Assembly (NCBI GenBank): GCA_041674185.1
Contig: JBAYWE010000003.1
Span: 896-64,895 of the forward strand
Direction: 5' to 3'
Source of the DNA: Minisyncoccota bacterium
Lineage (GTDB): Bacteria > Patescibacteriota > Minisyncoccia > UBA6257 > JAGOQP01
Length of the DNA: 64,000 nucleotides
In this document: positions 45,814 to 64,000 of the stretch, piece by piece
How positions within the stretch are numbered: position 1 is the first letter of the stretch
Layout: each line of letters opens with the position of its first letter
Translations under genes and position numbers: made by a program
Notes under the pieces: generated by a model
What the model was told of the DNA's origin: nothing
The model's input: the letters and a program-made list of their open reading frames with translations, nothing else
Database searches by the model: none

Positions 45814-47322
45814 TTATTTCTTATTCATAGTAATCTTGAAAACGATGGTGTTTTGATCTACCTGCGTAATACTTGTGAGAGGAAGTTGTACGTTTGTTAC
45901 AGAGGAAAGTTGCTCAAGTTTCCTTTTGAATTCAATCGCGGATTCTTCTTTATTTGTTCGAGCATTTAACGTAATACCCGAATCTGATGACTGTACATAG
46001 ATTCTATCGATCGCTACCAAGGGACCTGTTTGATTATATAAATCTGAGAGTACTGCGTGCCATCGTACTTGTTGATTTTGTACGGTAGATGCGCGTACTA
46101 CCGCATCATTAAATGCGGTTGCTTCCTGTTTTAATTCATTGTATCGCGTAACACTCGCAGAGGTAATTGAGGTATTCAAATCATCAGAAATAGTTCCCAC
46201 TAAATGGTTTAAAAATATATAAATTCCGATAAATGCCGCGAGAATAATAGTTCCTGATATGAGTATCATCGTACGCCACGCACCAATAAACGTATTTATT
46301 TGCGCTTGCAATAACATGCTTCGTGTATCTTCGGGAGTTAAGCTAATAGCTGTATCTTCTGAGCGGTCAATAACTCCTCGGAGTGCAGCACCTGCCCCCA
46401 CAAACCACGCCTCATCACTTGGTGCATTCGTAACGGTAAGAGGAAACACTCCAAATGAAAATTTATTTTTAAGAACTTCAAGAAGCTGTTTTTCCATAGC
46501 TCCCCCTATAATATATACTCCCGCAATAGGATCGTGATGCCTCCCTACAAAAAAGTTAGTCACCTGATGTATCTCTCGTATAATAAGCGTTGCAAAATCT
46601 GAAAAAATAATATCTCGCGTTGCGTGTATTTCTTTTAAAATTGTTTGCCATGAAGAAAATTTATCAAAGCAAAGATGTCCTCGAGTAATCACAGCCATAG
46701 TGATTCCATCACCTCCTATATGAAGTAATAAATATGATTTTGTTTTTACAAATGATGGTTCGCGTTGCACAATAAAACGAGCAAGAGACATGGACCTATG
46801 TTCAATTGCAACAGCTGAAAATCCCCCCTTTCTCAAACATCTTAAAAATATATCAATGATAGACTTTTCTACAAAAGAAGAAATAATTTCTACATCTGGA
46901 ACGTGTACCGTGGATTCTATTTTTTCCCATCCAGAATATGCCTCAGAAAAATTAATGGGAGAAATCGTCTGCATATTAAGTCGGACAGCCTCCTCAAACG
47001 ATCCCTCTGACAACTGAGGAAGGGTAAATAATTGCGTAAAAATATTCTCATCAGAAATAGTTACAATAACTGGAATTTCCTTTTTTTCTTTTGAGGTGAT
47101 CTGTTTATGTAACAGTTTTAGACTTTTTATAAATGCTTCTTGTTGTTTTATTTTTCCCTCTTGAATAATACCCGCTTCGAGAGGAACTGAATGCCGAGTA
47201 ACTCGGAGTGTTTCTGGCGCGATAGAAAAAAACACAATTCCTGCATCAGTTATTTCAAGCCCCCCAATCTCAATTTGAGGACGTACAATTCGTATAATTT
47301 TCTTTAGAAATAAAATATTCAT
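45814..47322 (-). CDS. type IV pilus assembly protein PilM-like fused to a PilN/PilO-like C-terminal region
   Basis: The N-terminal ~330 aa match an actin-like ATPase-fold PilM pattern. They are followed by a single TM helix (TMILISGTIILAAFIGIYIF) and a coiled-coil/periplasmic region as in PilN. The call rests on sequence pattern, not an HMM hit. Confidence 0.5.
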   Translation of the reverse strand: MNILFLKKIIRIVRPQIEIGGLEITDAGIVFFSIAPETLRVTRHSVPLEAGIIQEGKIKQQEAFIKSLKLLHKQITSKEKKEIPVIVTISDENIFTQLFTLPQLSEGSFEEAVRLNMQTISPINFSEAYSGWEKIESTVHVPDVEIISSFVEKSIIDIFLRCLRKGGFSAVAIEHRSMSLARFIVQREPSFVKTKSYLLLHIGGDGITMAVITRGHLCFDKFSSWQTILKEIHATRDIIFSDFATLIIREIHQVTNFFVGRHHDPIAGVYIIGGAMEKQLLEVLKNKFSFGVFPLTVTNAPSDEAWFVGAGAALRGVIDRSEDTAISLTPEDTRSMLLQAQINTFIGAWRTMILISGTIILAAFIGIYIFLNHLVGTISDDLNTSITSASVTRYNELKQEATAFNDAVVRASTVQNQQVRWHAVLSDLYNQTGPLVAIDRIYVQSSDSGITLNARTNKEESAIEFKRKLEQLSSVTNVQLPLTSITQVDQNTIVFKITMNKK

Positions 47323-47401
47323 GAGTCTTCGTTCCTGTCTTTTAGTATAATATAAAAACTATCGATTCACAAAATAAATCTGTCGCACCATGCTACTTTA
47401 T

Positions 47402-47860
47402 TTATAACTCGGTCAGTGACTGTTGATTTACTGAACCCAAATAACCATCTACCACAAAGATACTTTGAATTTGCACTCTCTTTGTTAATGCTCTTCCTGT
47501 TGCCACAACAGTATATTGACTAAATCGTGAGTCAATTGGTGTTTTTGTTACTGCAACTTGAACTGTAAAACTTCCTACTTGTATAGTATATGGACTTATT
47601 GAAGGTACCCAATCTTTGTTTCGTGCAATATGTAATAGTACATCAGAGATACCTGATTCCGCAGCTGCGGTCGCACTATATGACGCGCGTACCCCCATTC
47701 CTTGTTCACCCACTAGATACGCAACAACAAGCCCTACTAAAGCAGTTTCCATAATCACCGTACCAATAATCATTACCGTAGTAATAGAAACAACACCTCT
47801 CCGTACAGAATAATTCGAAGACGAACGAAGTTTTTGAAATATATTCAAAATCATATACAT
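47402..47860 (-). CDS. hypothetical membrane protein in the pilus-like cluster
   Basis: An N-terminal hydrophobic helix (VVSITTVMIIGTVIMETALVGLVVAYLV) followed by a Ser/Thr-rich beta-rich region. It has no canonical prepilin motif. Confidence 0.35.
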   Translation of the reverse strand: MYMILNIFQKLRSSSNYSVRRGVVSITTVMIIGTVIMETALVGLVVAYLVGEQGMGVRASYSATAAAESGISDVLLHIARNKDWVPSISPYTIQVGSFTVQVAVTKTPIDSRFSQYTVVATGRALTKRVQIQSIFVVDGYLGSVNQQSLTEL

Positions 47861-47871
47861 AGTCGTTATGT

Positions 47872-49479
47872 TTATTTACTCCAGTTAATCATTGATCCCA
47901 TGACTATAGGACCGGCTCCCCCACTGGGATTCAGGAAAATTTTATATCTAAAATATCGATAGTTATGAAAATTTTCTACATCAACTGATATATTAGAAGA
48001 TGCAGGAGAAAAATACGTTGATCCAGAGCCATCATATCCAGCATACCCCCATGGCCCGTCGGCATTGTTCGACATTGCGATCTGAAACTTTACATTTGTT
48101 CCCACCGGCTGTACCCCTTGCCATAACACACTATTAATCGCTGCACCTTGCGGTGTTTGAGTATCAAGTGTTGCTGACTCAAGCCATCCACTCACCGTAG
48201 TTGTTGCAAGACTAATCTGCCCCACCGTTGAAGTTGCGATATTATACGATGCAGCAAACGTACTGGTTGCGCTGGTAGTTGTTCCTGTGTTTCCAGGCCC
48301 TCCACTCCAATTATTATTATGTAATACAAAAATAGTATTTCTCATAAAATAATGGTAGAGCTGTAATTGTCTCCCCCCTTCCCACGTGACTCCCACAGTT
48401 ACTTTCTGAGTTGAAGGATCAACCACCCCTCCACTTGAAACAATATTTAAGTTTGTATCTCTATTTGTATTCTCTGTGAAAAAATATCTGTCATAAATAG
48501 GACTTTCATAAAGGCTTTTTATTTCTTCCGCACTTAATGCGCGATTATAGACCCGCGCATCATCAACAAGACCATTTAATCTGTAATTACCCACATACGC
48601 ATACGACCACTGTCCTACAAATATTTTATCAGGAGTAAACCTAACTGTTTTACTTAAATTCCACTTACTATCAAATTCACCGTTGATATAAAAACTAATG
48701 GAATTATCGTTTGTGCTGTATATAAGAACAACGTGGGACCACGTATTCGTGGGTACCACAAAATTACTTTGTTTAGAATTATATTCTCTCGTCCCATCGG
48801 TATATCCTATAGATGGAGCAAATCTACTGCTCACAATATTGATTCCGATATTTGATGGAACGGTATAATTATGAGTCGTTAAAACTCCAACCAGACTACT
48901 AACTGCTCGTGGATACACCCATACGGAATATGTTTGATCTGAACTTAAAGACACATCATTATCGCTCTTCGCATATGCATTATTAGTCCCATTAAAATCT
49001 AGGCATCCACCCGCTATACAACCGGGGGAAGAGATACGAGCAGGATCTCCTGTTGTAACTCCATCATTTCCATTTCCTGAAGTATCATATGTGGTTGTTC
49101 CTATATCTTCATCAAACTTCCACTGCCCTATCAACCCAGCAGTCACATCATTATATAAAACACTTTCAGTACCTGGAATAATAACGGTTGCTGATCCTCG
49201 TTGATTTAAAAAATAGTGATTCGTAGATCCTTTTGAAAGGTCATATAGTCCATGCCAATCTGAATTAGCTAATAACTGTACCTGATTTAAAACATCGTTT
49301 GCATATCCCGACGCAGCTTGATTTCCTCGCGTCTCAAAACTGTAGCGTAAAATAGAAGTTACCCCTAACGTTGCTCCTAACAAAAACATACCTCCCACAA
49401 ACAACGAAATTAACAACTCGATGAGAAGTTGTCCGTCATTTGCGTTTTTAAGCTTTTTGAAAAAATCTAACATACACAA
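47872..49479 (-). CDS. type IV pilin-like protein with a LamG/concanavalin-like domain
   Basis: The N-terminal class-III-type signal DGQLLIELLISLFVGG has Gly at -1 and Glu at +5. A W.FDEDIG....D.SGNGNDG motif is typical of the LamG-like jellyroll. Confidence 0.55.
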   Translation of the reverse strand: MCMLDFFKKLKNANDGQLLIELLISLFVGGMFLLGATLGVTSILRYSFETRGNQAASGYANDVLNQVQLLANSDWHGLYDLSKGSTNHYFLNQRGSATVIIPGTESVLYNDVTAGLIGQWKFDEDIGTTTYDTSGNGNDGVTTGDPARISSPGCIAGGCLDFNGTNNAYAKSDNDVSLSSDQTYSVWVYPRAVSSLVGVLTTHNYTVPSNIGINIVSSRFAPSIGYTDGTREYNSKQSNFVVPTNTWSHVVLIYSTNDNSISFYINGEFDSKWNLSKTVRFTPDKIFVGQWSYAYVGNYRLNGLVDDARVYNRALSAEEIKSLYESPIYDRYFFTENTNRDTNLNIVSSGGVVDPSTQKVTVGVTWEGGRQLQLYHYFMRNTIFVLHNNNWSGGPGNTGTTTSATSTFAASYNIATSTVGQISLATTTVSGWLESATLDTQTPQGAAINSVLWQGVQPVGTNVKFQIAMSNNADGPWGYAGYDGSGSTYFSPASSNISVDVENFHNYRYFRYKIFLNPSGGAGPIVMGSMINWSK

Positions 49480-49584: not shown

Positions 49585-50712
49585 CTAATAGCTCTCATAT
49601 AATGCTTTCACCTCACTTGTTGCAAGCGCACGATTATACACCCGCACATCATCTAATAATCCCTTTACCCTATCCCAATGTCCAGAGAAAAAAAGTGGAT
49701 TTGATTGATACGATATTGACCCTGTTACTGTCTGACATTCCTTCATAACTCCATTCATATAAATACATTGCTGTTTTGATGTATTATCAAAAGTTCCCGT
49801 GAGATACACCCACTCATTCCAATTTATTTTCTGCGTTCCAAAATATTGACCCGTAAGACCATTTAATCCCCACTTAAAAGTTCCATCAGAATTTACTTCA
49901 GTCGTATATCCATACCACGTAGTTACCAACACGTGCCGTTTTGATTGATTTTGTAGATTAGCCCAAAAACTAAGCGTTATAGAACTCGGTTTATAAGTCG
50001 CATTATTGGGAATACTGATTTCATCATTAATTCCATCAAAACCCAAACACCCCCCTGTCCTGCACAGTCCTGAACTTGAAGATTGCCATGTTGGACTATT
50101 ATTGAGAGTTCCTGTATGTCCTTTCCCCGATGCATCATACGCGTTCACTCCTATCTCCTCGTCAAGAGGCCAATATGCCACCAAATCTTTTCCCGATAAT
50201 TGACTTACGGATGATGATTTACTAACGGAGATAATATTCGCATCACCTCCCGCTGCTGTTTGAATACCAACGGTTTGTGCTACATCTGGCACTCCTGTTG
50301 TTTTAGAAAAAATAATAACCTTAGAAAAACCAGTTGAAGGATTAGAAAATTTTGAAGCACGGCTCAATGTTTGAGTTGTTACTACTGAAGATGTGGTATA
50401 TGTGGTACCTGAAAATATCTGGTAGGTATCACTTTCTGAACCAGTACTGGGATTAAATTTAATTCCCCACGCAGTCCCCTCCTCTCCTAAAATAGCTTTA
50501 TTTTGAGCACTACGAATACCTTCTAATATATTGGTACTATCTAATTGAAAACTGTGACGATTCTTATAACTCGTTAAATTGAGAATACCTATTCCAGTAA
50601 TAATAGAAAGAATTGTTACGGAAATAAGCATTTCTATCAACGTAAATCCTCCCCGCGCAGAATACGATGGTGTACAAATTTTATTATATTCTTCTCTGAA
50701 CGCATCTTTCAT
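49585..50712 (-). CDS. type IV pilin-like protein with a LamG/concanavalin-like domain
   Basis: A canonical prepilin N-terminus, RGGFTLIEMLISVTILSIITGIGIL, and an AYWPLDEEIGVNAYDASGKGHTG LamG-like motif. Confidence 0.6.
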   Translation of the reverse strand: MKDAFREEYNKICTPSYSARGGFTLIEMLISVTILSIITGIGILNLTSYKNRHSFQLDSTNILEGIRSAQNKAILGEEGTAWGIKFNPSTGSESDTYQIFSGTTYTTSSVVTTQTLSRASKFSNPSTGFSKVIIFSKTTGVPDVAQTVGIQTAAGGDANIISVSKSSSVSQLSGKDLVAYWPLDEEIGVNAYDASGKGHTGTLNNSPTWQSSSSGLCRTGGCLGFDGINDEISIPNNATYKPSSITLSFWANLQNQSKRHVLVTTWYGYTTEVNSDGTFKWGLNGLTGQYFGTQKINWNEWVYLTGTFDNTSKQQCIYMNGVMKECQTVTGSISYQSNPLFFSGHWDRVKGLLDDVRVYNRALATSEVKALYESY

Positions 50713-53715: not shown

Positions 53716-54578
53716 TTTACGATTCCCGACATCGTAAGATATAATAATAGAAACAAATAAATATGAGAAAAATATCTTTCTCCAATGACGGTATCTATCA
53801 TATTTTTAATAGAGGAGTCGATAAAAGAACTATATTTCTAGAAGACGGTGATTATTTTAGATTCATACATGATTTATATGAATTTAATGACGAATCACCA
53901 GCGGAGAATATTTATTACAAAACCTCCTCCTTACAATCTTACGATGTCGGGAATCGTAAGATACAAAAAAAGGTGCGAACCTTACTTGTTGATATTATTG
54001 CATTTTGTATAATGCCCAATCATTTTCATTTACTTGTAAAACAACGTGTAGAAAATGGCATTACATTGTTTATGAAAAAACTCGGAGGAGGATATGCAAA
54101 TTATTTTAATACAAAAAATGAACGATCAGGAACCTTGTTTCAAGGACGGTTTCAGGCAGTTCCTATTGATACAGATGAATATCTCACGTACATTCCATTT
54201 TATATTCACGCCAACCCCATAGAACTGTATGATCCAGGGTGTAAAGAATCTGGTTTTTCAAAAAACAAAAAAGATGTTTTACATTTCTTAGAATCTTATA
54301 GGTGGTCAAATTTTCCAGATTGTATAGGTAAGAAAAATTTTCCCTCGGTTACACAAAGAGATTTTATTCTGAATTATTTTGGCGGACCTCTTCAATATAA
54401 AAAATATATGCTGAATTGGATGGATCGATTTGCTTCTTCAAAAATTTCTGCAAATACAACTACAAAAATAGAAGTGTCGGACAGAGACATGCGAGATATC
54501 ACCCTAGACTAGAGACTAGACTCGAAACTACTAGACTAAAAGTTATATTTATGTTCTTACGATTCCGGGAATCGTAAG
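53716..54578 (+). mobile_element. IS200/RAYT-like HUH transposase unit with REP-like hairpins
   Basis: Three copies of the 23-bp imperfect palindrome CTTACGAT-N7-ATCGTAAG lie at 53716-53738 (upstream, inverted loop), 53938-53960 (inside the CDS) and 54556-54578 (downstream). They bracket the transposase gene 53763..54512. Confidence 0.5.
53763..54512 (+). CDS. IS200/IS605-family (Y1 HUH) transposase / REP-associated tyrosine transposase-like
   Basis: YHIFNRG near the N-terminus, the HUH motif MPNHFHLLV, and a catalytic Tyr region YIPFYIHANPI, matching the Y1 transposase (Transposase_17) pattern. A C-terminal extension of about 100 aa is present. Confidence 0.65.
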   Translation: MRKISFSNDGIYHIFNRGVDKRTIFLEDGDYFRFIHDLYEFNDESPAENIYYKTSSLQSYDVGNRKIQKKVRTLLVDIIAFCIMPNHFHLLVKQRVENGITLFMKKLGGGYANYFNTKNERSGTLFQGRFQAVPIDTDEYLTYIPFYIHANPIELYDPGCKESGFSKNKKDVLHFLESYRWSNFPDCIGKKNFPSVTQRDFILNYFGGPLQYKKYMLNWMDRFASSKISANTTTKIEVSDRDMRDITLD

Positions 54579-54741
54579 ATGGGTACGGGGGGAAGGGGGC
54601 GCAGAAAAGTTGTACACATTTTTTCATAGCGTATTACCCGTGAATACGGTATACTATCTGTATGTACTATAGTATATGTATAGATACTATTCATTTATAC
54701 ATTCACTGTACTATATATAATACACAGTTAGTACCACACGT

Positions 54742-57700
54742 ATGATACGCGTACCATTTTTACAACAGCGGAGAGGTTTTTCGTTGGCCGAACTTATTAT
54801 CTATTTGGGTATTCTCGGTATATCAGCCGGGATTTTCGGTGGTATGTTAAATACCATCAGCACTACTCAAATTGCGGAGTTTAATCAGAATGAAGTTTCT
54901 GGACAATTAAACTTTGCTATACAAACTATTCAACGTTATGTACGCGCGGCAAGTATTATAGAAGGAGAATCAGGAATTCCGAGTTCTACGCTTGTATTAC
55001 AGATGCCTGTTGCCGCACAAAATCCAACAAGCATTTCTCTGCAGAATAATCGTATTTATATTACTCAGGGAGCAACGGGGACACCACTTGCCATTACGAA
55101 TGATAAAGTTTCTATTGATAATTTAGAATTTCGTCGTTTTGCACAACCTGCCTCAAAAGATGTTGTCCAAATTGATATTGCTATCTCACAAGAATCAGCC
55201 GGAGGAAAACGTATTGCTCGTTCATTGCGCTCCGCTATTACTCGTGTGAACGCCGCTGCATTTGATAGCGATCTTATTCCTAATTCCGACGGTTCATATA
55301 ATGTGGGTACGTACCCTTCCGCACGATGGCGTGACGGATCATTTTCTGGACAAGTTTCCGCTGGATCATTTTGTTTTGCTTCTGATTGTCGTACATCGTG
55401 GGCAAACATCGCAGGAGTAAGTGGAAGTGGAAGCGCAAATTATATTGCAAAATGGAATACTGCAAGTACCATTAACGCCTCAACTCTTATTTATGATAAC
55501 GGCACCAATGTAGGAATCGGTGCTATTAACCCTGGATACAAACTCGATGTACAAGGCGGACAAATTAATACTTCAGGTGGACTTTGTATTAACGGTGATT
55601 GTAAAACAGCGTGGTCTCAAATTGCGGGCACCCAGGCGTGGACGGCAACCGGAACCAGTATTTATTACAACACGGGAAATGTAGGGATTGGAATGGTAAA
55701 TCCGGGATCAAAACTAGATGTTTTAGGTGATATTCGATCAGGAACTTCGTACCGAACCAGCATCCAAGGAGATGGTTCTGGAGCAAGGGTTCTATTTGGA
55801 TCTGAAGGAGATCCAGATTATTTAGGTATTATTGGAGCTTTCGCATCAATGATGCAAATTGATAGTTATAATGGACCACTTGTATTTAAGGAGGCTGGTT
55901 CTGAAAAAGTTAGAATTACTTCCGGTAACGTTGGCATTGGAACAACAGCACCTGGTGCCAAACTACATGTTTCTGGAGGGAGTATTTTAATGGATAATAA
56001 CCTTGCATTTAAATTCAAAGATTCCACAGGAACTGCACAAAATGTATTCTTCGCTGGTACTGATAACGTACTCTATATTCAACCGCTTAACGTAACCAAG
56101 GGAACTTCTATTCAATATGGAAATCTTGGTGTAGGTACTAACGTACCCACCGCAAAGCTACAAGTGAATCCCGGAACCGCGGTTGAAGGAATTCGTATTA
56201 TTTCGAGTGACTACTCCCCTTTTATTATTCGTAACTCTGCCGACACTGCTGATTTGTTCCGCGTAGATCAAAATGGAAATATTACTGGAGGAACAGGAAA
56301 TGCAAGTGCATGGACACGTAATTCAACCAGTGGCTATTTATATACAAGTACTTTAACCGACAAAGTTGGTATTGGAACAGCAACACCCGGAACCTATAAC
56401 GGCGTCGTATCTGGTTTAGAAGTAAAAGGATCTAGTCATACCGGAATAGCGATTAATTCTCCAACGGATTATGCGGCAAGTCTTACTTTGGCTGAAAATA
56501 ATAATCCTATGTGGCACTTACTCTCCAGAGGAGATTCTGCTAATAGATTTGAATTATATGCTGCTGATGGAACAAGTAATGGAGCAAAAATAACTGTATT
56601 GCAAGGTGGAAATGTGGGTATTGGAACGATAGCACCAACATCAAGATTGGTAGTAAGTTCCTCAGGTATATCAGCTGGAACACCAGAATTTGTTGTTGGT
56701 GATTATGGAACAATAAAATTAAAAACATATCAAACTGGAAGTACTTATGCTGCGATTTATACAGGAGCTAATGAAGATTTAAGAATTACTGCTGGGACAG
56801 ATAGTTCTCAATTAGTATTAAAAGCAAACAATGGAAACGTCGGTATCGGGACTGCCTCCCCTGCTCAAAAACTATCTGTTGCGGGAACTATAGAATCAAC
56901 TTCAGGTGGTGTTAAGTTTCCTGACGGCACCACACAAACCACTGCATATGCAGGAGGGACTCAAACAATTGTTTCCGGAAATGTTTCCTCAGGTGCGTTT
57001 GGTAGTAATACGGGGGGTGGAAATTATAGTTTTCCGGGTAATGTGGGGATAGGGACAACAAGTCCGGGAAAAACCTTGCATGTGGTAGGCGATGTTCGTG
57101 GTGGAGCTTATTATAATACGAACTCTGGCGACGGTTGGTTGATAAATCAGGATTCGGGAACAAACCGAGGACTATATTATTACAATACCGCAGGAACTTG
57201 GGATTTCTTTGACGGAGGTACATCAAAGGTAAGTATCAACACCAGTGGGAATATACAAATGGACGGAGTATTAACAATAAGTGGGACAGGAAATACAACA
57301 ATAGCCGGTAACGTCGGTATCGGAACAACGGCACCTCAATCTACTGTTAAACTTGATGTTCGACAAAGCCTCACAAACGGCACTGCTATTGCTGGATATG
57401 TTTATGACGCTACCCAAGAAATAACGGCACTATACGGTGTTGCCTATCCAACAACAGGTAGCGCGGCAGCGTATGGAATGCGAGGTGAGGCAGGTGGCAC
57501 ACGTACAACTGGAACAAATATCGGTGGTTACTTTTCTGCAAGTGGTGCAACAAATAATTATGCTTTGATTACAGGAGGTGGCAACGTCGGTATCGGTACT
57601 GCCTCCCCTGCTCAAAAACTATCTGTTGCGGGAACTATAGAATCAACTTCAGGTGGTGTTAAGTTTCCTGATGGTACTACACAGACAACTGCATATGCAG

Positions 57701-59970
57701 GAGGAACCCAGACAGTGGTAGCGGGAAATGTATCTTCGGGTGCGTTTGGTGCAAATACTGGCGGTGGAAATTATAGTTTTCCAGGTAATATGGGAATTGG
57801 AGTAGCAAGTCCTTCGTATAAATTGGAGATTGGAGCTTTGAGTGGTTCTGTAGAACCCACGAGCTTGAAAATAAATGGTGGTGCAACCAATGTTACTCAG
57901 ATTCGTATTGGTGATAACTATACCGCAGCAGTTGGTACTCGATATTCTGGAGCAGAGGCTTACCTATCGAGTAACTCTTATCAGAATACATTAGGAGCTG
58001 ACTCATGGGCTAAAACAGCAACCACATACGGATCAACCATGCTTTCTTTGGGAATTAGTTCTACTTTAACTTCACCAGCACTTCAAGTTAAATTTTCTCC
58101 GGCAAGTACAGCAAATGGAGCTATAGCCTCTTTCTTCCCAAATGATTTATTTACTATTCTCGGTAATGGAAGTGTTGGTATTGGAACGGTATCACCCGGA
58201 GGAAAATTAACTGTGGATGGATCTGGAGAGACACTCATTAAGTTGCAATCAGGTGGCACTGAGTTTGGTGAAATCGGCACCTATTCGAGTGGTTTGATAA
58301 TAGGTACCAATACCGCTGTTCCGTTGACTTTAGAAACCAGCAATACGGCAAGAGTAACTGTTCTCGGTGGTGGTAATGTGGGTATTGGAACGACGAGTCC
58401 GGGAGCAAAATTACATATCCAAACTGATACCTCAGGAACGCAAATACCATTTGATATCTACGGATATAGAACAGCAGCACCAGCAAGTGCTACTCATTTA
58501 GCCCAAATATCTCAAATAGGAACTTATGGCCAAGGTGTTTTGGATCTATATAACTCCGCCCAGGTTAGTGCTATTCATCTTGCAACAGATGGTAACAGTT
58601 ATATAGTACCGCAAAATTCTGGCAACTTTGGTATCGGAACCACTACTCCTGCTACAGCACTTCATGTCGTTGGTACAGTAACCGCGAGTGCTTTTAGTGG
58701 TGCTCTTTCAGGAACGGTAACCGCCCCGAATGTATCTTCTGGTGCGTTTGGTGCAAATACCGGAGGTGGAAATTATAGCTTCCCTGCTAATGTCGGTATT
58801 GGAATTGCAAGTCCGGGAAGCCAGCTACATGTTTATTCAGCAACAACAGGTATCTTTACTTTAGAGGGGGCTACTACAGGTGCTTATACGGCAGCTGACA
58901 TGCTTCTAAAAAGCAGCGGCTCATCTGGTATGCGGGGTACAGGAGTATTTATGTATGATTCTCTAGCACAGAAAGAATGGTATGCGGGAACTCCATATAG
59001 TGCTACTGATTCTTACATGATTGGAAGAAAATCCTCGGTTGCTAGTCACGATTCATCGATTGCCCAAACATCAAACGCTCTATTGGTTATTAATAACACC
59101 GGCAACGTCGGAATTGGAATAGCAAATCCGGTAAAAAAATTACAGGTACATGGAGATATAGCCCTATCAAATGGAGGAAGGATCGGACAAGGAAATGGAT
59201 GGGGCACTGATGGTAATTCTTATAATGCGACTTTAGAACTATATAATGGAGCAACCGGATATACTACTCTACAATCCGCAACAGCTTATGGGATATTACT
59301 CAATCCTTCGGGTGGCAATGTCGGCATCGGGACGACGGCACCGAACTATAAACTACATACTTATGTTGCTTCTGGAAATACAGAAAATAGATTTCAGACT
59401 GCTGGAACAGGATATGCTGCACTAAGCTTAATTAATAACACAAATAATTTATATGTAGGAGTTAATGATAGTATAGGAACAGGAATGTTTTCTTCGGGAG
59501 GTATAGCAAATGCTGGAGCATTATATACCCTTGGGAGTTATCCATTACAATTAGGAACTTCAAATCTTCCCAGAGTTACAATTGACAGCGCCGGCAACGT
59601 CGGCATCGGGACGACGGGGCCTACCCATAAACTTGATGTATCTGGTTCATTTTATTCTCGTCTTATTACCAAGGGCAATTGTACTGGTGCGGTTACCATT
59701 GATTGGAATGCAGGAAACACCCAACATTGTGTACTTACCGGAAATGTGACCTTCACCTTCTCAAATGGACAAAGCGGAGGTAACTATAAATTGGTCTTAA
59801 AACAAGGCGGTACCGGATCATACACGATCACGTGGCCTGGAACGGTGCGTTGGGGTGGAGCTGTCTCCCCCACACTCACCACTACCGTGGGTAAGAGCGA
59901 CTATGTAGGATTCTTCTACAACGGAGTAGATAGTACGTATGACGGAAATGCATTTAATGCAAACTTCTAA
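54742..59970 (+). CDS. giant (1742 aa) pilin-like protein with a class III signal peptide and tail-fibre-like GNVGIGTTxPxxKLxV repeats
   Basis: The N-terminus QQRRGFSLAELIIYLGILGISAGIFGG has G-F at the cleavage site and Glu at +5. The body holds more than 20 copies of a (G)NVGIGT(T/A)SPxxKL(H/S)VxG motif, which resembles the phage tail-fibre repeat (Phage_fiber_2-like) consensus. The repeats are separated by Gly/Thr/Ser-rich beta segments. Confidence 0.65.
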   Translation: MIRVPFLQQRRGFSLAELIIYLGILGISAGIFGGMLNTISTTQIAEFNQNEVSGQLNFAIQTIQRYVRAASIIEGESGIPSSTLVLQMPVAAQNPTSISLQNNRIYITQGATGTPLAITNDKVSIDNLEFRRFAQPASKDVVQIDIAISQESAGGKRIARSLRSAITRVNAAAFDSDLIPNSDGSYNVGTYPSARWRDGSFSGQVSAGSFCFASDCRTSWANIAGVSGSGSANYIAKWNTASTINASTLIYDNGTNVGIGAINPGYKLDVQGGQINTSGGLCINGDCKTAWSQIAGTQAWTATGTSIYYNTGNVGIGMVNPGSKLDVLGDIRSGTSYRTSIQGDGSGARVLFGSEGDPDYLGIIGAFASMMQIDSYNGPLVFKEAGSEKVRITSGNVGIGTTAPGAKLHVSGGSILMDNNLAFKFKDSTGTAQNVFFAGTDNVLYIQPLNVTKGTSIQYGNLGVGTNVPTAKLQVNPGTAVEGIRIISSDYSPFIIRNSADTADLFRVDQNGNITGGTGNASAWTRNSTSGYLYTSTLTDKVGIGTATPGTYNGVVSGLEVKGSSHTGIAINSPTDYAASLTLAENNNPMWHLLSRGDSANRFELYAADGTSNGAKITVLQGGNVGIGTIAPTSRLVVSSSGISAGTPEFVVGDYGTIKLKTYQTGSTYAAIYTGANEDLRITAGTDSSQLVLKANNGNVGIGTASPAQKLSVAGTIESTSGGVKFPDGTTQTTAYAGGTQTIVSGNVSSGAFGSNTGGGNYSFPGNVGIGTTSPGKTLHVVGDVRGGAYYNTNSGDGWLINQDSGTNRGLYYYNTAGTWDFFDGGTSKVSINTSGNIQMDGVLTISGTGNTTIAGNVGIGTTAPQSTVKLDVRQSLTNGTAIAGYVYDATQEITALYGVAYPTTGSAAAYGMRGEAGGTRTTGTNIGGYFSASGATNNYALITGGGNVGIGTASPAQKLSVAGTIESTSGGVKFPDGTTQTTAYAGGTQTVVAGNVSSGAFGANTGGGNYSFPGNMGIGVASPSYKLEIGALSGSVEPTSLKINGGATNVTQIRIGDNYTAAVGTRYSGAEAYLSSNSYQNTLGADSWAKTATTYGSTMLSLGISSTLTSPALQVKFSPASTANGAIASFFPNDLFTILGNGSVGIGTVSPGGKLTVDGSGETLIKLQSGGTEFGEIGTYSSGLIIGTNTAVPLTLETSNTARVTVLGGGNVGIGTTSPGAKLHIQTDTSGTQIPFDIYGYRTAAPASATHLAQISQIGTYGQGVLDLYNSAQVSAIHLATDGNSYIVPQNSGNFGIGTTTPATALHVVGTVTASAFSGALSGTVTAPNVSSGAFGANTGGGNYSFPANVGIGIASPGSQLHVYSATTGIFTLEGATTGAYTAADMLLKSSGSSGMRGTGVFMYDSLAQKEWYAGTPYSATDSYMIGRKSSVASHDSSIAQTSNALLVINNTGNVGIGIANPVKKLQVHGDIALSNGGRIGQGNGWGTDGNSYNATLELYNGATGYTTLQSATAYGILLNPSGGNVGIGTTAPNYKLHTYVASGNTENRFQTAGTGYAALSLINNTNNLYVGVNDSIGTGMFSSGGIANAGALYTLGSYPLQLGTSNLPRVTIDSAGNVGIGTTGPTHKLDVSGSFYSRLITKGNCTGAVTIDWNAGNTQHCVLTGNVTFTFSNGQSGGNYKLVLKQGGTGSYTITWPGTVRWGGAVSPTLTTTVGKSDYVGFFYNGVDSTYDGNAFNANF
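56839..57800. repeat. near-identical internal DNA repeats (period 747 bp) within the giant pilin-like gene
   Basis: gtcggtatcgg(g/t)actgcctcccctgctcaaaaactatctgttgcgggaactatagaatcaacttcaggtggtgttaagtttcctga occurs at 56839 and 57586. A third, more diverged copy lies near 58736. Confidence 0.6.
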
Positions 59971-60035
59971 TGGATATATTATGGAGTTCGTATTATGAAT
60001 TGTGCTATACTTAAAAAAATAATTAAACGTTTATT

Positions 60036-60608
60036 ATGACTATAGATAAAAAGACTTTATATATTATCATCGGTGTTGTGGTACTTATCATCGCAGGACT
60101 TATTGGATTACTTCTTGCACAAAGTGATAACACCTCTTCTTCAGCCAATCCAGCTAATCCAACTTCTCAAGATGGAGGCTCAGGAACTCCCCTTTCTGAG
60201 ACACACGCAGAAGTTCCTCAAGACATAGAGGTTCCTGATTTAAGCGCAACTGCTACCAGTGTTCCTGAGGACGTTGCTATCCCCAAAGCAGTTACTTCTG
60301 CCGCCCCTGGTGTTTCTGCTTCATTACGCGTATTTGAAATTAAAGGAGAGAATGGTACCTTTAGTCCTTCAACGGTTATTGCCTACACCGGAGATACGAT
60401 ACATGTGAATTTTACCGCCGTTGATAAAGAATATGATATTACGTTTCCTGACTATAATATGAAACAAACGGCATCAAAAGGACAAACAAAAGTTCTTGAG
60501 TTTCAAGCACAAGCAACAGGGAAATTTACCTACTACTGTGATCTCTGTGGTGGATTAAAATCAAAAGCTGTTGGATATATTATTGTAGCTCCTCTGAAGA
60601 CTCAATAA
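60036..60608 (+). CDS. membrane-anchored protein with a cupredoxin-like C-terminal domain (paralog 1 of 3)
   Basis: TM helix, a Ser/Thr/Pro-rich linker, then FSPSTVIAYTGDTIHVNFTAVDKEYDITF...GKFTYYCDLCGG...GYIIV. This resembles the cupredoxin beta-sandwich pattern but lacks the full Cu-ligand set. Confidence 0.35.
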   Translation: MTIDKKTLYIIIGVVVLIIAGLIGLLLAQSDNTSSSANPANPTSQDGGSGTPLSETHAEVPQDIEVPDLSATATSVPEDVAIPKAVTSAAPGVSASLRVFEIKGENGTFSPSTVIAYTGDTIHVNFTAVDKEYDITFPDYNMKQTASKGQTKVLEFQAQATGKFTYYCDLCGGLKSKAVGYIIVAPLKTQ

Positions 60609-60718: not shown

Positions 60719-61270
60719 ATGCACAAAATTTTAAACCATACCAAAGTTATTTTTGTTATTGTAGGAGTTTTTCTTCTCTGCGGCATTGCTCTGATTATGT
60801 ATTCATCCTCTCCTACTAATTCTCATCAAGACACCTCTCTTATAACACCTATTGCTTCATCAACCACACCTTCTGTATCATCTATCCCCCAACCATCATT
60901 TCAACCATTTACAGAACAACATCCTGATTCTTATACTCTGTCAAAACCAGACCAACTTATTCCTGCACCTATAAAAACAAACGACACCAGAAAGACAAAA
61001 TTGTTTTATTTACAGGAAACGATTGATGGATTTACTCCCGATCATATTGTTATTGAACGAACTGATCGTGTGCGTATTCAATTTACTGCAGTTGATGATG
61101 CATACGATCTTGCTATTGCTCCTCCTATTGGAGCCTACATTGCCGCGGCGCATGGAGGCTCTACTTTATTTGGATTTGACGCACATTATATTACCCCTGG
61201 CATATATACTTTTGTCTGTCAGAAGTCGTGTCCCCCTCGTTACGCACAGGGAACTCTGGTTATTAAATAA
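60719..61270 (+). CDS. membrane-anchored protein with a cupredoxin-like C-terminal domain (paralog 2 of 3)
   Basis: The same architecture as paralog 1: FTPDHIVIERTDRVRIQFTAVDDAYDLAI...GIYTFVCQKSCPPRYAQGTLVIK. Confidence 0.35.
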   Translation: MHKILNHTKVIFVIVGVFLLCGIALIMYSSSPTNSHQDTSLITPIASSTTPSVSSIPQPSFQPFTEQHPDSYTLSKPDQLIPAPIKTNDTRKTKLFYLQETIDGFTPDHIVIERTDRVRIQFTAVDDAYDLAIAPPIGAYIAAAHGGSTLFGFDAHYITPGIYTFVCQKSCPPRYAQGTLVIK

Positions 61271-61325
61271 CAAATGCAGTATAATATTTATATATTAGTA
61301 ATTAATAAGTAACACATAAAAAAAT

Positions 61326-61826
61326 ATGAGTACTGAAAATGGTGGATCAACAAAATCCACAAAAATAGTCACCGGCGTGGTGGCAGTTATCGTTATTATT
61401 ATTATTGCGTTGTTTGTTTTCCTCTCCCCCTCTTCACCGGAGTCAACAACAGACACCACAAACCCAGCTACTGAAGATAGCGCCCTTCCTCCTGAAAATG
61501 CGTCTACTACCGGTGGCGCTGCAGGTGGCGCATTTGGTGATATAAAAGATGTTGATAAGATTTATGAAATAAAAATGGATAAGGGAGCATTTAGTCCTGT
61601 GAGTACTGTTGTTTCTAAGGGCGCAGTTGCTCGTATCGCTTTTTCTGCAATAGATGGGGATTACAATGTTTCATTTGCATCTCCTATTGATATGAATATC
61701 AATTTGAAAAAAGGACAAGCAGCACTCGTTCCGTTTGATGCTCAGAAAAATGAATCGGGAGAATATGCATTTACCTCAAAAGATGCTGAAGGAAAAACCA
61801 TGACGGGAAAAATTGTTATCAAATAG
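61326..61826 (+). CDS. membrane-anchored protein with a cupredoxin-like C-terminal domain (paralog 3 of 3)
   Basis: The same architecture as paralogs 1 and 2: FSPVSTVVSKGAVARIAFSAIDGDYNVSF...GEYAFTSKDAEGKTMTGKIVIK. It contains no Cys. Confidence 0.35.
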   Translation: MSTENGGSTKSTKIVTGVVAVIVIIIIALFVFLSPSSPESTTDTTNPATEDSALPPENASTTGGAAGGAFGDIKDVDKIYEIKMDKGAFSPVSTVVSKGAVARIAFSAIDGDYNVSFASPIDMNINLKKGQAALVPFDAQKNESGEYAFTSKDAEGKTMTGKIVIK

Positions 61827-61847
61827 TTAGTTAATCATCACCATACT

Positions 61848-64000
61848 ATGACACCAACTTTTTTGCGTGATTTTAGTCTTTCTGCACTACTGTCACGCAA
61901 AATATATCTTACGGTCGTCTTTTTCGCTTTCATTGTACTGGCTTCATTTTTCATGGAGCCAGTTTCTATTGCCGAAGCTGCTTTATGGAACAACTGCGAT
62001 GGAGGCTGTCAAACTGAATATTTTTGTTCTGGATATACTCGATACTATAACGAACCTGATTGGGAAGATTGTACCGGAGCCTGTATTCCTTACGTTGTTC
62101 AATATAACTCTCCTGCGTGCGGATGGAATAACTGTGTAGGAGTAACCTGTAATCCTTATTGTTCAGGTACAACGGCTTATTACAATGGATATTGTTCCAA
62201 CGGAGCTTGTTATTATTCTACCGACAACTGCGCAAATGGATTTTGTGATGGTATGACTCCCTATGCAGGAGCGGGTTGTTCTGGTGGATCCTGTATGAGA
62301 ACCGCCGGAAGTGCTTGTCCTTCTTCCACCTGTTCAGGCACCACCTATTTATATAATGGATATTGTTCGGGAGGTGGTTGTGGATATTCTTCTTCATCAA
62401 TTACCGCAGGAACCTGTGGAGCGACCTGCACCCCAGGTGCTTCTCGCGTACGTTATAGAACTTATTCTGTCGCCTGTGGATATAGTGGTGCGAGTGAAAC
62501 GCAATACTGTAATGCGAGTGGTACTGGATGGTCTGGTACATTTACTGATACCACCTATACCACCTCATCTCGTACTGCATATTCAGCACTCACTTCTTCG
62601 TGCGGAACATATGGATATTCGAGTGAATCTCAAATATGTTATAACTCTGGTAGTTGGTCAGGAACATTTACCCTCACCTCACCTCCTACCGTTACCTCAC
62701 GAACACGATATAACCCGCAAACTAATTCATGTGGTACCTACGGATATACGAGTGAGGGTCAAACGTGTCAATCAAATGGTTCTTTCAGTGGATCGTATAC
62801 ACTCACCAGTCCTCCTTCCAATTCAACACGGTATATGTATGCTCCCGCAACTTCTGCGTGCGGAACCTACGGTACCATGGGAGAAACACAAACGTGTTCG
62901 GCGGGTGGATGGAGTGGTACTTTTACTTATTCATCCCCACCTGCATATTCAACACGAGTGAGACATGCAGCAAATACATCTTCTTGCGGAACGTATGGGT
63001 ATTCTTCTGAATCACAAACATGTCTTTCAAGTGGTAGCTGGTCAGGATCCTATACACTTGCCTCACCTCCCTCTACAAGCAGTAGAACTATGTATGCACA
63101 ACTCTTTTCTGCGTGCGGAGCATATGGATCAACTTCAGAAACACAATATTGTCAATCGAGTGGAAGTTGGACTGGAAGTTATACGTGGGCATTTGCACCA
63201 CCCTCTAGCTATAGAACTGTTTATGGACCACTTACTTCAGCGTGTGGTACCTATGGATCAACTGCCGAAACACAATATTGTCAATCGAGTGGCGCATGGA
63301 CTGGTACTGGACTAACCATGGGATCACCTCCCTCAAATACAACTCGCTTACGATATGGAGCGCTTACTTCTGCGTGTGGTACCTATAGCATTGATAGTGA
63401 AACACAAACCTGTTTATCAAATGGATCTTTTAGTGGTACGTATTCTCTAACTTCCCCACCAAGTATAACAACGAGAACTAGATACGGAGCGCGTACCTCT
63501 GCGTGTGGAATATATGGATCAGATAGCGAAACACAGACCTGTGGATATAATGGAGCGTGGTCTTCTGTTATGGGATACACTCTTACCTCTCCTCCATCTG
63601 CTGATACTCGTACACGATATGCTGCTGCAACTTCAGCCTGTGGAACATACGGAGCATCTAGTGAGAGTCAATCGTGTCAGTCAAGCGGTTCTTGGTCTGG
63701 AAGTTATTCACTAACTTCTCCCCCATCTGCTGATACTCGTACACGATACACCTCTCTCACTTCAGCCTGTGGAACGTATAGCTATACAAGTGAGAGTCAA
63801 TCATGTCAGTCAAGCGGTTCTTGGTCTGGAAGTTATTCACTAACTTCTCCCCCATCCAATACAACGAGAACGCGCTATACCGCTTTAACAAGCGCGTGTG
63901 GTACGTATAGCTATGATTCCCAAACTCAAACCTGTCAATCAAATGGAAATTTTGATGGAACGTATGCTCTCGCCTCACCTCCTTCATATCCTACAACTCG
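61848..64000 (+). CDS. secreted Cys-rich protein with 12 or more tandem ~43-aa repeats, 3' partial (continues past the window end)
   Basis: Manual translation from the ATG at 61848 gives MTPTFLRDFSLSALLSRKIYLTVVFFAFIVLASFFMEPVSIAEA, then a region with about 30 Cys (CSGTTAYYNGYCSNGACYY, CSGTTYLYNGYCSGGGCGY). Twelve repeats follow, of the form TRxRYxxLTSACGTYGxxSE(T/S)QxCQSSGSWSGSYxLTSPPS (DNA period about 120-129 bp). There is no stop before base 64000. The ORF track missed it and instead shows spurious ORFs in frame +1 and on the minus strand. Confidence 0.6.
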   Translation, partial: MTPTFLRDFSLSALLSRKIYLTVVFFAFIVLASFFMEPVSIAEAALWNNCDGGCQTEYFCSGYTRYYNEPDWEDCTGACIPYVVQYNSPACGWNNCVGVTCNPYCSGTTAYYNGYCSNGACYYSTDNCANGFCDGMTPYAGAGCSGGSCMRTAGSACPSSTCSGTTYLYNGYCSGGGCGYSSSSITAGTCGATCTPGASRVRYRTYSVACGYSGASETQYCNASGTGWSGTFTDTTYTTSSRTAYSALTSSCGTYGYSSESQICYNSGSWSGTFTLTSPPTVTSRTRYNPQTNSCGTYGYTSEGQTCQSNGSFSGSYTLTSPPSNSTRYMYAPATSACGTYGTMGETQTCSAGGWSGTFTYSSPPAYSTRVRHAANTSSCGTYGYSSESQTCLSSGSWSGSYTLASPPSTSSRTMYAQLFSACGAYGSTSETQYCQSSGSWTGSYTWAFAPPSSYRTVYGPLTSACGTYGSTAETQYCQSSGAWTGTGLTMGSPPSNTTRLRYGALTSACGTYSIDSETQTCLSNGSFSGTYSLTSPPSITTRTRYGARTSACGIYGSDSETQTCGYNGAWSSVMGYTLTSPPSADTRTRYAAATSACGTYGASSESQSCQSSGSWSGSYSLTSPPSADTRTRYTSLTSACGTYSYTSESQSCQSSGSWSGSYSLTSPPSNTTRTRYTALTSACGTYSYDSQTQTCQSNGNFDGTYALASPPSYPTT
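62440..64000 (+). repeat. coding tandem repeats (about 123-129 bp per unit, 12 or more units) within the Cys-rich protein gene
   Basis: For example, ccatctgctgatactcgtacacgata...gtcagtcaagcggttcttggtctggaagttattcactaacttctccccca occurs at 63594 and 63723 with more than 90% identity. Confidence 0.65.

Follow-up and report, generated by a model that had tools for sequence, protein, structure and literature searches.

Results

The 1742-aa ORF at positions 54742–59970 (+) of the window, by which we mean the whole 64,000-nt stretch analyzed, is probably a giant modular type IV minor pilin that displays a phage-like adhesive fiber at the pilus tip, most simply as a trimer in the manner of CofB. Domain, profile, and structure comparisons resolve its architecture into a class III leader, a pilin module, a linker, a long fiber shaft, and a C-terminal tip. 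The ORF, from an uncultured, ultrasmall bacterium of the CPR (Paceibacteria), is intact, and its product is a 100% match to the NCBI MAG protein WC099_01060 of a Candidatus Paceibacterota bacterium. When all ORFs were re-checked, their coordinates agreed with those of the original prediction, which had been made from this DNA alone.

At the N-terminus, which reads RRG/FSLAEL, prepilin peptidase is predicted to cut after G12 and release the leader MIRVPFLQQRRG (residues 1–12, 54742–54777, +). The Pfam N_methyl profile scored the protein just under its cut-off (18.2 bits against 21.2, E 0.0018), and a search with NCBIfam TIGR02532 gave no match. Nevertheless, all 17 aligned relatives keep F+1 and E+5 and have G or A at −1, and a profile of these relatives' N-termini matches those of Geobacter PilA, PilA, and MshA in the PDB (E 1e-4 to 5e-2). 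The proposal that this N-terminus is a prepilin signal is thereby borne out. Across all six frames of the window and contig, only three class III-like N-termini were found.

The pilin module (residues 13 to ∼175, 54778–55266, +) is of the GspJ/PilW-like minor-pilin type, with an alpha1 helix of 55 residues leading into an antiparallel beta-sheet. The AF2 model reaches a pLDDT of 80–90 over residues 15–167 and is unreliable past residue 170; the best structural matches of the module are GspJ/PilW-type modules, not type IVb pilins. Stand-alone pilins of 164–377 aa carry the same module. It is followed by a conserved linker, AAFDSDLIPnsDgSYNVG....RWRDGsFSG (∼residues 171–205, 55252–55356, +), with near-invariant positions F174, D175, S176, P180, G189, and W196 among the aligned relatives; this motif was found in 18 of the 20 pilin-type relatives but is absent from all 230 relatives that are not pilins. 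These comparisons show that the protein joins a class III signal and a GspJ/PilW-like pilin module to a shaft of ∼1450 residues, with a family-specific linker as the junction.

The same N-terminus could serve for export and anchoring only, with no long pilus being made. With or without PilD cleavage, the hydrophobic alpha1 helix would then tether the giant to the cytoplasmic membrane or to a short pseudopilus only a few subunits long, and a trimeric fiber would cross the wall by its own length. Archaeal binding proteins with class III signals are a precedent for such anchoring. However, a complete and conserved pilin module with a globular, GspJ-like beta-sheet, together with a family-specific linker, exceeds what an anchor needs, and E+5, the residue needed for pilin-pilin packing, is invariant. 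We regard this reading as somewhat unlikely, and return to it below.

The shaft (∼residues 206–1640, 55357–59661, +) is rich in Gly, Thr, and Ser and holds at least 15 GNVGIGTxxPxxKLxV motifs. The original prediction had described it as a series of GNVGIGTTxPxxKLxV repeats; the motif is indeed present at least 15 times, but it is no strict tandem repeat, as the 15 copies of G[NS]xG[IV]G are spaced irregularly at 65–163 aa and accompanied by degenerate copies. A 234-nt duplication lies inside the shaft (56832–57065 vs 57579–57812, 87% identical). As had been suggested for a fiber fold, the region matches a solved trimeric beta-helix fiber, Bdellovibrio Bd2133 (PDB 8OND, residues 561–757 of the giant, E 2.2e-17), as well as PDB 8OJN (E 3.7e-7), and it matches the PHROG families phrog_9942 ('tail fiber', E 2e-37) and phrog_18345 (E 2e-21). 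Phage_fiber_2 (PF03406), the family that had been put forward for checking, gave no match. More than 2400 homologs of the fiber were found, many with a Peptidase_S74 end. Judged by sequence, these matches show the shaft to be homologous to the trimeric beta-helical MAT fibers of Bdellovibrio and to phage tail fibers, and it is presumably itself a trimeric beta-helix. Scaled from Bd3182 and Bd2133, the fiber would be ∼60–90 nm long.

The last ∼100 residues (∼1641–1742, 59662–59967, +) form an independent beta-sandwich, a putative receptor-binding tip, which was modeled with a pLDDT of about 96 and has phage tailspikes and tail fibers as structural neighbors. Relatives of the tip are present in 48 viral contigs, showing that this tip type also occurs on phage fibers, whereas no relatives of the pilin module were found in viral contigs. 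Compared with the Bdellovibrio MAT tips in the PDB, the tip has a different fold and gave no match. The viral relatives, the strong tail-fiber PHROG matches, and the NCBI label 'tail fiber domain-containing protein' on many homologs would all fit a prophage or tailocin tail-fiber gene with a pilin-like N-terminus arising by chance. We consider this highly improbable. Phage fibers share with the giant the repeat motif, shaft homology, the tip, and rapid shaft and tip exchange, but the giant gene is cellular and sits at a fixed chromosomal locus; its N-terminus attaches to the fold of a pilus subunit, where phage fibers have a baseplate-binding domain, and it lacks an S74 chaperone.

The giant gene is divergent from lepA, with an IS200/RAYT-like gene (53763–54512) that had previously been overlooked lying between them, and it adjoins lepA in every related GTDB locus with enough upstream sequence, where the pilin products range from 189 to 1931 aa. 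Orthologs of 973–1742 aa are ∼90% identical at their ends and differ in their shafts, which among close orthologs (973–1075 aa) vary in both length and sequence. We infer that shaft length and tip evolve by rapid exchange, as they do in phage receptor-binding proteins.

Directly 3′ of the giant gene lie three paralogous genes for single-pass cupredoxin-like membrane proteins, as had been proposed (pairwise BLAST E 1e-7 to 1e-11). The first (190 aa, 60036–60608, +) has an N-terminal TM segment (Cupredoxin_1, 35.7 bits) and is 42% identical (E 2.5e-40) to the product of the gene 3′ of a distantly related giant pilin (P0030). The second (183 aa, 60719–61270, +) scores 16.5 bits, under the cut-off of 27, and matches its paralogs by BLAST at E 3e-7 to 1e-10; the third (166 aa, 61326–61826, +), which has no Cys, scores 28.4 bits and also matches its paralogs by BLAST. 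In relatives, a gene of this kind comes next after MAT-type pilins, and homologs also accompany non-pilin MAT-like giant genes. The cupredoxin-like proteins appear to be dedicated partners of MAT-type fibers, and our guess is that they act as an extracytoplasmic assembly or anchoring factor. Next comes the expected secreted Cys-rich protein (61848–64000, +), with at least 14 tandem 43-aa repeats of two Cys each (TRF period 129 nt); it is incomplete, continuing past the ends of the window and contig. An 892-aa ortholog is found in one related locus (L004), and searches of Pfam, NCBIfam, and PHROG gave no match.

On the opposite strand lies a second set of pilus-related genes. The 502-aa product of 45814–47322 (−) had been called a PilM/PilN fusion; its PilM part stands (PilM_2, 33.8 bits, cut-off 27), whereas PilN scored 15.4 bits, under the cut-off of 22.8. 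With its one TM segment (residues 345–379) between the PilM and PilN parts, this PilM-TM-PilN fusion is predicted to belong to the alignment or assembly platform of a type IV pilus. Two LamG proteins had both been credited with canonical prepilin N-termini. This holds for the 375-aa protein (49585–50712, −; N_methyl 29.3 bits, cut-off 21.2; TIGR02532 26.2, cut-off 16.3; Laminin_G_3 72 bits), which has weak ComGD/GspH-like matches and is a modular minor pilin bearing a LamG module of the ConA-like lectin type. It does not hold for the 535-aa protein (533 aa by gene call; 47872–49479, −; Laminin_G_3 74 bits; TM segment 15–44), whose N-terminus, G/QLLIE, has E+5 but Q at +1, with no N_methyl or TIGR02532 match and a weak PilV match (E 0.027). 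Between these genes and PilM/N, a 152-aa protein (47402–47860, −) with one N-terminal TM segment (22–52) gave no family match; its position is kept in two related loci (L004 and L005), and it is possibly a PilX/ComGG-like minor component.

The original prediction saw these ∼18 kb, from PilM/N to the Cys-rich protein, as one co-functional pilus locus organized around the giant pilin. In favor of this, the full order LeuRS-PilMN-146aa-LamG-LamG-SurA_N-DivIC-LepA, followed by giant-cupredoxin x3-large protein, is retained in two related MAGs, so that conservation of gene order in relatives was correctly anticipated. However, the genes form two divergent transcription units separated by housekeeping genes (DivIC/FtsB, LepA, and SurA_N-like genes were verified in the window, with ftsB and lepA lying between the LamG genes and the giant as stated); more distant genomes retain the giant with lepA and a cupredoxin gene, without PilM/N or the LamG pair; and the cupredoxin genes travel with MAT-like fibers whether these are pilins or not. 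Because the conserved partners of the giant are lepA, by position, and a cupredoxin-like gene, the PilM/N and LamG genes, adjacent only in close relatives, are not part of one giant-centered neighborhood, and we judge the single-locus reading quite unlikely. They are an ordinary minor-pilin unit, separate from the giant, of the same or another pilus.

Discussion

In the explanation we favor, prepilin peptidase would cut off the 12-residue leader, and the type IV pilus machinery would load the pilin module into the tip complex that initiates the pilus; its simplest form would be a homotrimer, for which CofB on a three-start type IVb pilus is the model. The passenger would then form one trimeric fiber projecting from the pilus tip, whose tip domain would bind to some structure on the surface of a host or partner cell. 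Some points count against this. GspJ-type minor pilins normally enter heterotrimeric, not homotrimeric, tip complexes, and to our knowledge a passenger of ∼1570 residues is far larger than that of any characterized pilin. The trimerization and beta-helix of the giant are deduced from homology alone.

No pilB, pilC, pilD, or pilT lies in the window, as originally reported, or on the whole 73.5-kb contig, nor does a small major pilin. Since a prepilin peptidase, an assembly ATPase, PilC, and a major pilin are all absent from the contig, processing and polymerization stay predictions here, and the missing major pilin and ATPase favor the membrane-anchored fiber. So do the Sec-signal MAT-like giants among the relatives, which bear the same tip and indicate that the fiber works without a pilus, and the scaled length of the passenger, which alone would equal the CPR pili of TM7x (mean 77–122 nm, PMC11623550). 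Against it, a second, sister lineage of giant pilins has a T2SSE (PilB-like) ATPase ∼3 kb away.

The claim that such a protein is not a described pilus component went too far. A class of modular pilins has already been described (Raynaud et al. 2021, PMC8179133), in which LamG (PF13385) pilins are the commonest architecture (229 proteins), the S. sanguinis pilins PilB and PilC carry a vWA and a ConA-like lectin module, respectively, the largest protein singled out has 860 aa, and 29 pilin-S74 tail-fiber fusions are listed in Dataset S1. The giant pilin is thus an unusual variant of a known design, not a new kind, differing in that its passenger is fibrous, presumably a trimeric phage-like shaft with a tip, and bears no InterPro or Pfam signature, which is why proteins of this type escaped that census. 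In the literature searched, we found no experimental study of a modular pilin with a tail-fiber-type passenger.

The closest relatives of the shaft are the mosaic adhesive trimer (MAT) fibers Bd2133, Bd1334, and Bd3182 of Bdellovibrio bacteriovorus, which are trimeric prey adhesins (Caulton et al. 2024, PMC10769870; PDB 8OND, 8OJN). Likeness extends to the GNVGIGTxxPxxKL motif, the segment GTIxSTSGGxKFPDGxxQTTA, a mosaic architecture whose interchangeable tips are either S74 or non-S74, and occurrence in a bacterium living on other cells. In contrast, Bdellovibrio MATs begin with a Sec signal and an invariant beta-rich domain of ∼130 aa, in place of which the giant has a pilin module that would be its anchor; the giant is also ∼1.7 times longer than typical MATs. 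CofB and TcpB (PMC6048534), minor pilins that form trimers at the tips of type IVb pili, likewise have a pilin domain followed by beta-rich homotrimerizing domains; from their place at the tip, the trimers start pilus assembly and mediate adhesion. In their geometry they set a precedent for a pilus that carries a trimeric passenger, although no sequence or fold relation to the giant was detected and the passenger of CofB, ∼300 aa long, has an H-type lectin at its end.

A pilus-displayed adhesin, as first proposed, is the most reasonable function for the giant pilin, which is probably a host-attachment device. Among CPR bacteria, the minor pilins PilX1 and PilX2 of Nanosynbacter lyticus TM7x have lectin-like accessory domains at their C-termini. 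Efficient host binding requires PilX2, and the jelly roll of PilX1, which is L-type-lectin-like, can be compared with the LamG pilins of the window (PMC11623550). Their passengers are single globular domains, not fibers, and they come from Saccharibacteria, a different CPR class from that of the bacterium encoding the giant. Lectin-bearing minor pilins acting in host binding by a CPR bacterium are nonetheless a precedent for the role that the giant pilin may play (PMC11623550).

Results

The 1742-residue product of the plus-strand ORF at 54742-59970 (the giant) matches, at 100% identity, a hypothetical protein (WC099_01060) from a MAG of a 'Candidatus Paceibacterota bacterium'. Its N-terminus reads MIRVPFLQQRRG/FSLAELIIYLGILGISAGIFGG (MIRVPFLQQRRG/FSLAELIIYLGILG...; the slash marks the predicted cut) and has the layout of a class III signal, in which a short polar leader with Gly as its last residue is followed by a hydrophobic +1 (Phe or Met), Glu at +5, and ∼20 hydrophobic residues. 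In an alignment of 17 relatives with such N-termini, Phe+1 and Glu+5 are invariant and position -1 is Gly or Ala, and a profile of this alignment, when compared to the PDB, retrieved the N-termini of Geobacter PilA-N, PilA, and MshA and almost nothing else (E 1e-4), in keeping with the prepilin signal originally proposed. Pfam N_methyl was the sole Pfam match to the giant at E ≤0.1, at 18.2 bits (E 0.0018), just below its cut-off of 21.2, and NCBIfam (TIGR02532 included) returned nothing. Residues 1 to ∼175 are predicted to adopt a pilin fold, with a long alpha1 helix packed on an antiparallel beta-sheet; this module was also found as stand-alone proteins of 164-377 aa, some with N_methyl matches and one labelled pseudopilin PulG at source. 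The linker motif that follows it, FDSDLIP...G....RW.DG.FSG, was found in 18 of the 20 pilin-type relatives, whereas all 230 non-pilin relatives lack it. The giant is thus a modular pilin, i.e., a pilin module joined to a module that is not specific to type IV pili, as the fibre module is homologous to non-pilin proteins.

In the shaft (residues ∼206-1640), whose composition is 15% Gly, 11.5% Thr, and 10% Ser, the GNVGIGTxxPxxKLxV motif occurs at least 15 times, unevenly spaced by 65-163 residues. By phmmer against the PDB, residues 561-757 matched 8OND (Bd2133; E 2.2e-17) and residues 1599-1662 matched 8OJN, a second chain of the mosaic adhesive trimer (MAT) fibres of Bdellovibrio (E 3.7e-7), so the shaft is homologous to the beta-helical fibre region of Bd2133 and Bd1334. 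PHROG tail-fibre families matched it at E 2e-37 and 2e-21. Phage_fiber_2 (PF03406), the family put forward for this body in the original prediction, gave no match on the giant, and the tail-fibre similarity comes from the PHROGs and the PDB instead. In a monomer model the start of the shaft has a pLDDT below 50, which is expected of an obligate trimer and is not proof of one. A word-indexed search returned more than 2400 homologues, most of them Patescibacteria or metagenome proteins of 1000-2900 aa. Peptidase_S74 (S74) is the C-terminal domain of many, NCBI calls several 'tail fiber domain-containing protein', and among the best 120 a prepilin-type N-terminus was found in only ∼14, with Sec signals or phage-like N-termini in the rest. 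Within the gene, a 234-nt segment is directly duplicated (56832-57065 and 57579-57812, 87% identity) and encodes GNVGIGTASPAQKLSVAGTIESTSGGVKFPDGTTQTTA, the element with the best match to Bd2133; an adjacent 86-nt segment has a third partial copy at 58729-58814. This repeat points to a shaft that has lengthened recently through segmental duplication.

The tip, comprising the last ∼100 residues, was confidently modelled as a beta-sandwich (pLDDT ∼96) and matches PHROG tail-fibre and tail-assembly families. No Pfam family matched it in 25 members, and S74 (PF13884) had no Pfam match on the giant. Like a non-S74 MAT tip, it is an independent, putatively adhesive domain that is exchanged between proteins. 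Proteins of 171-6681 aa with Sec signals also have it as their C-terminus, and a Sec-type giant of 2149 aa bears this tip at 74% identity. Close orthologues of 973, 999, and 1075 aa share the first ∼300 residues and the tip at ∼80-90% identity and differ in the length and sequence of the shaft. A search of 2.9 million viral contigs found 48 relatives of the tip, at 27-48% identity, and none of the pilin module. Because of this split among viral contigs, the variable shafts of the orthologues, the shared tip of the Sec-type giant, and the internal duplication, we conclude that the giant is a mosaic, with a cellular pilin at its front, a concatenated shaft of fibre type, and a phage-type tip that can be exchanged.

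Every ORF of the original prediction was present in the window, but what had been described as one 18-kb neighbourhood built around the giant is in fact two units. The plus-strand unit, divergent from lepA, consists of a Y1 transposase gene, the giant, three Cupredoxin_1-like proteins, and a Cys-rich secreted protein. The transposase gene (53763-54512), which had passed without mention, is IS200/RAYT-like (Pfam Y1_Tnp, 37 bits) and lies between lepA and the giant. A 25-nt palindrome, TCTTACGATTCCGGGAATCGTAAGA, perfect or nearly so, occurs twice (53937-53961 and 54555-54579; chance expectation none) and brackets most of the gene, and two related MAGs (L002 and L004) lack the element at their syntenic loci. 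Apart from the transposase, gene order on both strands is wholly kept in two related MAGs; in more distant genomes lepA, the giant pilin, and a cupredoxin-like gene are kept, and PilM/N and the LamG pair described below are missing.

When GTDB species representatives were scanned for the pilin module, using 6 closer sequences, 11 loci (L014-L024) were found, whose titles include Paceibacterota, Paceibacter, Parcubacteria, Wolfebacteria, and, in one case, Saccharibacteria. The pilin gene adjoins lepA in all 10 with enough upstream sequence. Its product ranges from a pilin alone (189 aa) through pilins with other passengers (541-645 aa) to MAT-type proteins (1000-1931 aa), and the gene next to lepA thus behaves as a hypervariable 'passenger slot'. 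The 541-645-aa products bear Gly-rich or Cys-containing C-termini on the same pilin module. A sister lineage has AFTLIE-type giant pilins of 1721-2003 aa with a homologous pilin module and linker at a different locus. There the giant gene is followed by genes for a cupredoxin-like protein and a GGDEF protein, and a T2SSE (PilB-type) ATPase is encoded ∼3 kb further along. The 483-491-aa gene beside this ATPase was tested as a PilM/N homologue and rejected.

The three cupredoxin-like proteins directly downstream of the giant (cup1, 60036-60608; cup2, 60719-61270; cup3, 61326-61826; all plus strand) are single-pass paralogues, two of which exceed the Cupredoxin_1 cut-off. The His...Cys...His...Met copper ligands are not conserved across them, since by inspection cup1 ends in YYCDLCGG and cup2 in C-x3-C, and cup3 has no Cys. 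Some homologues keep a type-1-copper-like C..(P)GH/DH....M motif that the window's three paralogues lack, and a C-x2-G-H-x7-8-M motif is carried by those beside P0007 and P0008, two homologues of the giant. Cup1 is 42% identical (E 2.5e-40) to the gene downstream of the sister-lineage giant, whereas the giants themselves are only ∼30% identical. In the reverse direction, the two cupredoxin-like homologues that were looked up both were embedded in gene arrays for MAT-like giants of the Sec type (2253, 2460, and 2562 aa in one; 1846, 1072, 1160, and 1322 aa in the other, one with S74), each with 5-22 GNVGIGT motifs. We thus conclude that this cupredoxin-like membrane protein accompanies MAT-like fibres generally, rather than pilins. 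In Patescibacteria, genes of this type occur consistently among those for MAT-like giants, pilin and non-pilin alike (L026 7029-7604, L027 10001-10576 and 14120-14794, L006 13275-13844, and L008 15859-16410). In phages, tail-fibre genes are followed by chaperone genes; a comparable guess here would be a role in assembly or anchoring outside the membrane. At another locus (L011), a pilin-type protein of 985 aa (P0079, 10001-12958) ends in ...CDNLYKLACVY and the 172-aa protein downstream of it (12967-13485) in ...CDSLYKLACVY; the likeness of these two ends suggests a shared small Cys-containing domain that would replace the cupredoxin partner.

The last gene of the unit (61848-64000, plus strand) runs off both window and contig and encodes the Cys-rich secreted protein, in which an N-terminal region dense in Cys is followed by a 43-aa repeat with two Cys, present at least 14 times (rough consensus RYxxLTSACGTYGxxSETQxCQSSGSWSGSYxLTSPPSxxTRT). 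It matched nothing in Pfam, NCBIfam, or PHROGs. Loci L001 (17107-19590) and L004 (14617-17295) likewise encode it, and the orthologue of 892 aa has a domain of a different kind at its C-terminus.

The minus-strand unit comprises, in order of transcription, LepA, a DivIC/FtsB-like protein, a SurA_N-like membrane protein, a 375-aa LamG pilin, a 535-aa LamG protein, a 152-aa protein, and a PilM-TM-PilN fusion. A six-frame regex scan of the 64 kb found only three class III-like N-termini, those of both LamG proteins and the giant. The 375-aa protein scores with N_methyl (29.3 bits), TIGR02532 (26.2 bits), and Laminin_G_3 (72 bits). The 535-aa protein, whose N-terminus had been called canonical, obtained no prepilin score; it begins G/QLLIE, with Glu+5 yet Gln+1. 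The fusion has the architecture of an actin-like PilM, a TM segment (345-379), and a periplasmic PilN, with PilM_2 above its cut-off at 33.8 bits (a match to profile positions 15-205 of 340 only) and PilN below its own at 15.4 bits. The 152-aa protein (47402-47860), between the LamG pilins and PilM/N, has one N-terminal hydrophobic segment (RRG/VVSITTVMIIGTVIME...), keeps its position in relatives, and has no family match; possibly it is a minor pilin of PilX/ComGG-like type, though not a canonical one.

As predicted, pilB, pilC, pilD, and pilT are absent from the window, and PilB, PilC, PilD, and PilT are likewise absent from the rest of the 73.5-kb contig: no pilus ATPase, PilC platform, or prepilin peptidase (PilD/Peptidase_A24) was found on it. 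PilM/N is the sole type IV pilus machinery gene in the window, and neither the window nor the other 9 kb of the contig contains a small major pilin. ORFs of 550 and 429 aa at 862-3781 were considered as PilB and PilC and rejected, being a PBP transpeptidase and a Mur ligase. The remaining genes of the window are housekeeping genes (dcw genes, DnaE, ThrRS, GyrB, LeuRS, ribosomal proteins, and 12 tRNAs), and the other 9 kb, upstream, hold dcw genes, an ABC transporter, another giant surface protein, and nothing else. Two minus-strand ORFs, at 39025-40410 (461 aa) and 25444-26307 (287 aa), had no Pfam match at E ≤0.001. A very large surface-type protein of 1361 aa (7202-11287, minus strand) is rich in Fn3/PhoD_N-like repeats and has a match to the Ig-like domain of phage Tip-attachment-protein-J, and one of 1918 aa upstream on the contig (L025 11467-17223) has CHB_HEX_C, Fn3, and bacterial surface Ig-like domains. 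The GC content is 35-40% in the window and 42-45% across the Gly/Thr/Ala-rich genes near its 3' end. Promoter and terminator scans gave scores not above those of shuffled sequence.

Discussion

More than 1200 modular pilins in 264 architectures have been catalogued, the commonest passenger being LamG (PF13385; 229 proteins) and the largest member highlighted having 860 aa; 29 pilin-S74 fusions are among those listed (Raynaud et al. 2021, PMC8179133). The giant differs in having a non-S74, tail-fibre-type passenger with no domain signature and therefore would escape that census, but the original description of it as not a described pilus component was overstated in view of the fusions already listed. 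What stands is a pilin-like giant with a tail-fibre-like body, evident in its class III signal and MAT-homologous shaft; the single neighbourhood and the undescribed component do not. In Saccharibacteria, minor pilins with lectin-like C-terminal domains occur, one of which is required for efficient host binding (PMC11623550). Because of this precedent, and because LamG is the commonest passenger, the window's two LamG pilins and PilM/N are ordinary. We found no published description of pilin-MAT or pilin-tail-fibre giants in Patescibacteria, which, as our coverage of the literature was incomplete, is weak evidence of absence.

MAT fibres are trimeric beta-helical surface fibres with exchangeable tips that serve prey recognition (Caulton et al. 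2024, PMC10769870). Canonical members have a Sec signal and an invariant beta-rich N-terminal domain of ∼130 aa, both of which the giant lacks; because its N-terminus is instead a class III signal and pilin fold, it is MAT-like in shaft and logic and not a canonical MAT. The anchoring partner of the invariant domain was stated to be unknown, with type IV pili mentioned as possibly interesting (PMC10769870).

The giant is a real pilin-fibre chimera and plausibly a host-attachment device. It would be cleaved after Gly12 and enter the pilus-initiating tip complex, whereupon its passenger would trimerise and adhere via the tip. The trimeric passenger presumed for the giant would not be the first on a pilus: in CofB, the beta-rich domains form a homotrimer at the tip of the three-start type IVb pilus (PMC6048534). 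Size is the main argument for a different arrangement, in which the pilin module would serve only to fix the fibre to the membrane or a short pseudopilus. Bd3182 (922 aa) measures ∼550 Å and 370 aa of Bd2133 measure ∼145 Å (PMC10769870); scaled from these, the passenger would be roughly 60-90 nm long, similar to the averages of 77-122 nm for whole pili of TM7x, another CPR bacterium (PMC11623550). We nevertheless consider such an anchor unlikely and prefer a pilus-borne fibre. Giant surface proteins are a heavy investment by a small genome. A more far-reaching reading, which we regard as doubtful, is that Paceibacteria converted a receptor-binding fibre of phage type into a device for host recognition borne on a pilus. 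A type IV pilus would then be capped by three GspJ-like modules, which together would bear a single trimeric fibre of 60-90 nm whose tip can be swapped. On this reading the hypervariable slot adjacent to lepA (189-1931 aa) would set host range, and the cupredoxin-like proteins, invariably encoded next to MAT-type fibres, would form a novel class of extracytoplasmic factors for fibre assembly or anchoring, comparable to phage tail-fibre chaperones.

Type IV pili are nearly universal in CPR bacteria. How uncultivated members recognise and attach to their hosts is largely unknown beyond Saccharibacteria. A pilin bearing a phage- or MAT-like fibre joins two systems that have been studied separately, type IV pili and the chimeric trimeric prey-recognition fibres of Bdellovibrio, and offers one concrete answer to the open question of what anchors the cell-proximal end of a MAT, as the pilus itself would be the anchor. 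The hypervariable lepA-adjacent locus and its exchangeable tips are candidate host-range determinants that can be read from metagenomes, and the constant cupredoxin-like neighbour is a candidate accessory factor. Because the finding is computational and the modular-pilin design, S74 fusions included, is already catalogued, it refines rather than overturns current understanding. As a computational inference, the giant is a concrete candidate for host recognition in uncultivated Paceibacteria.
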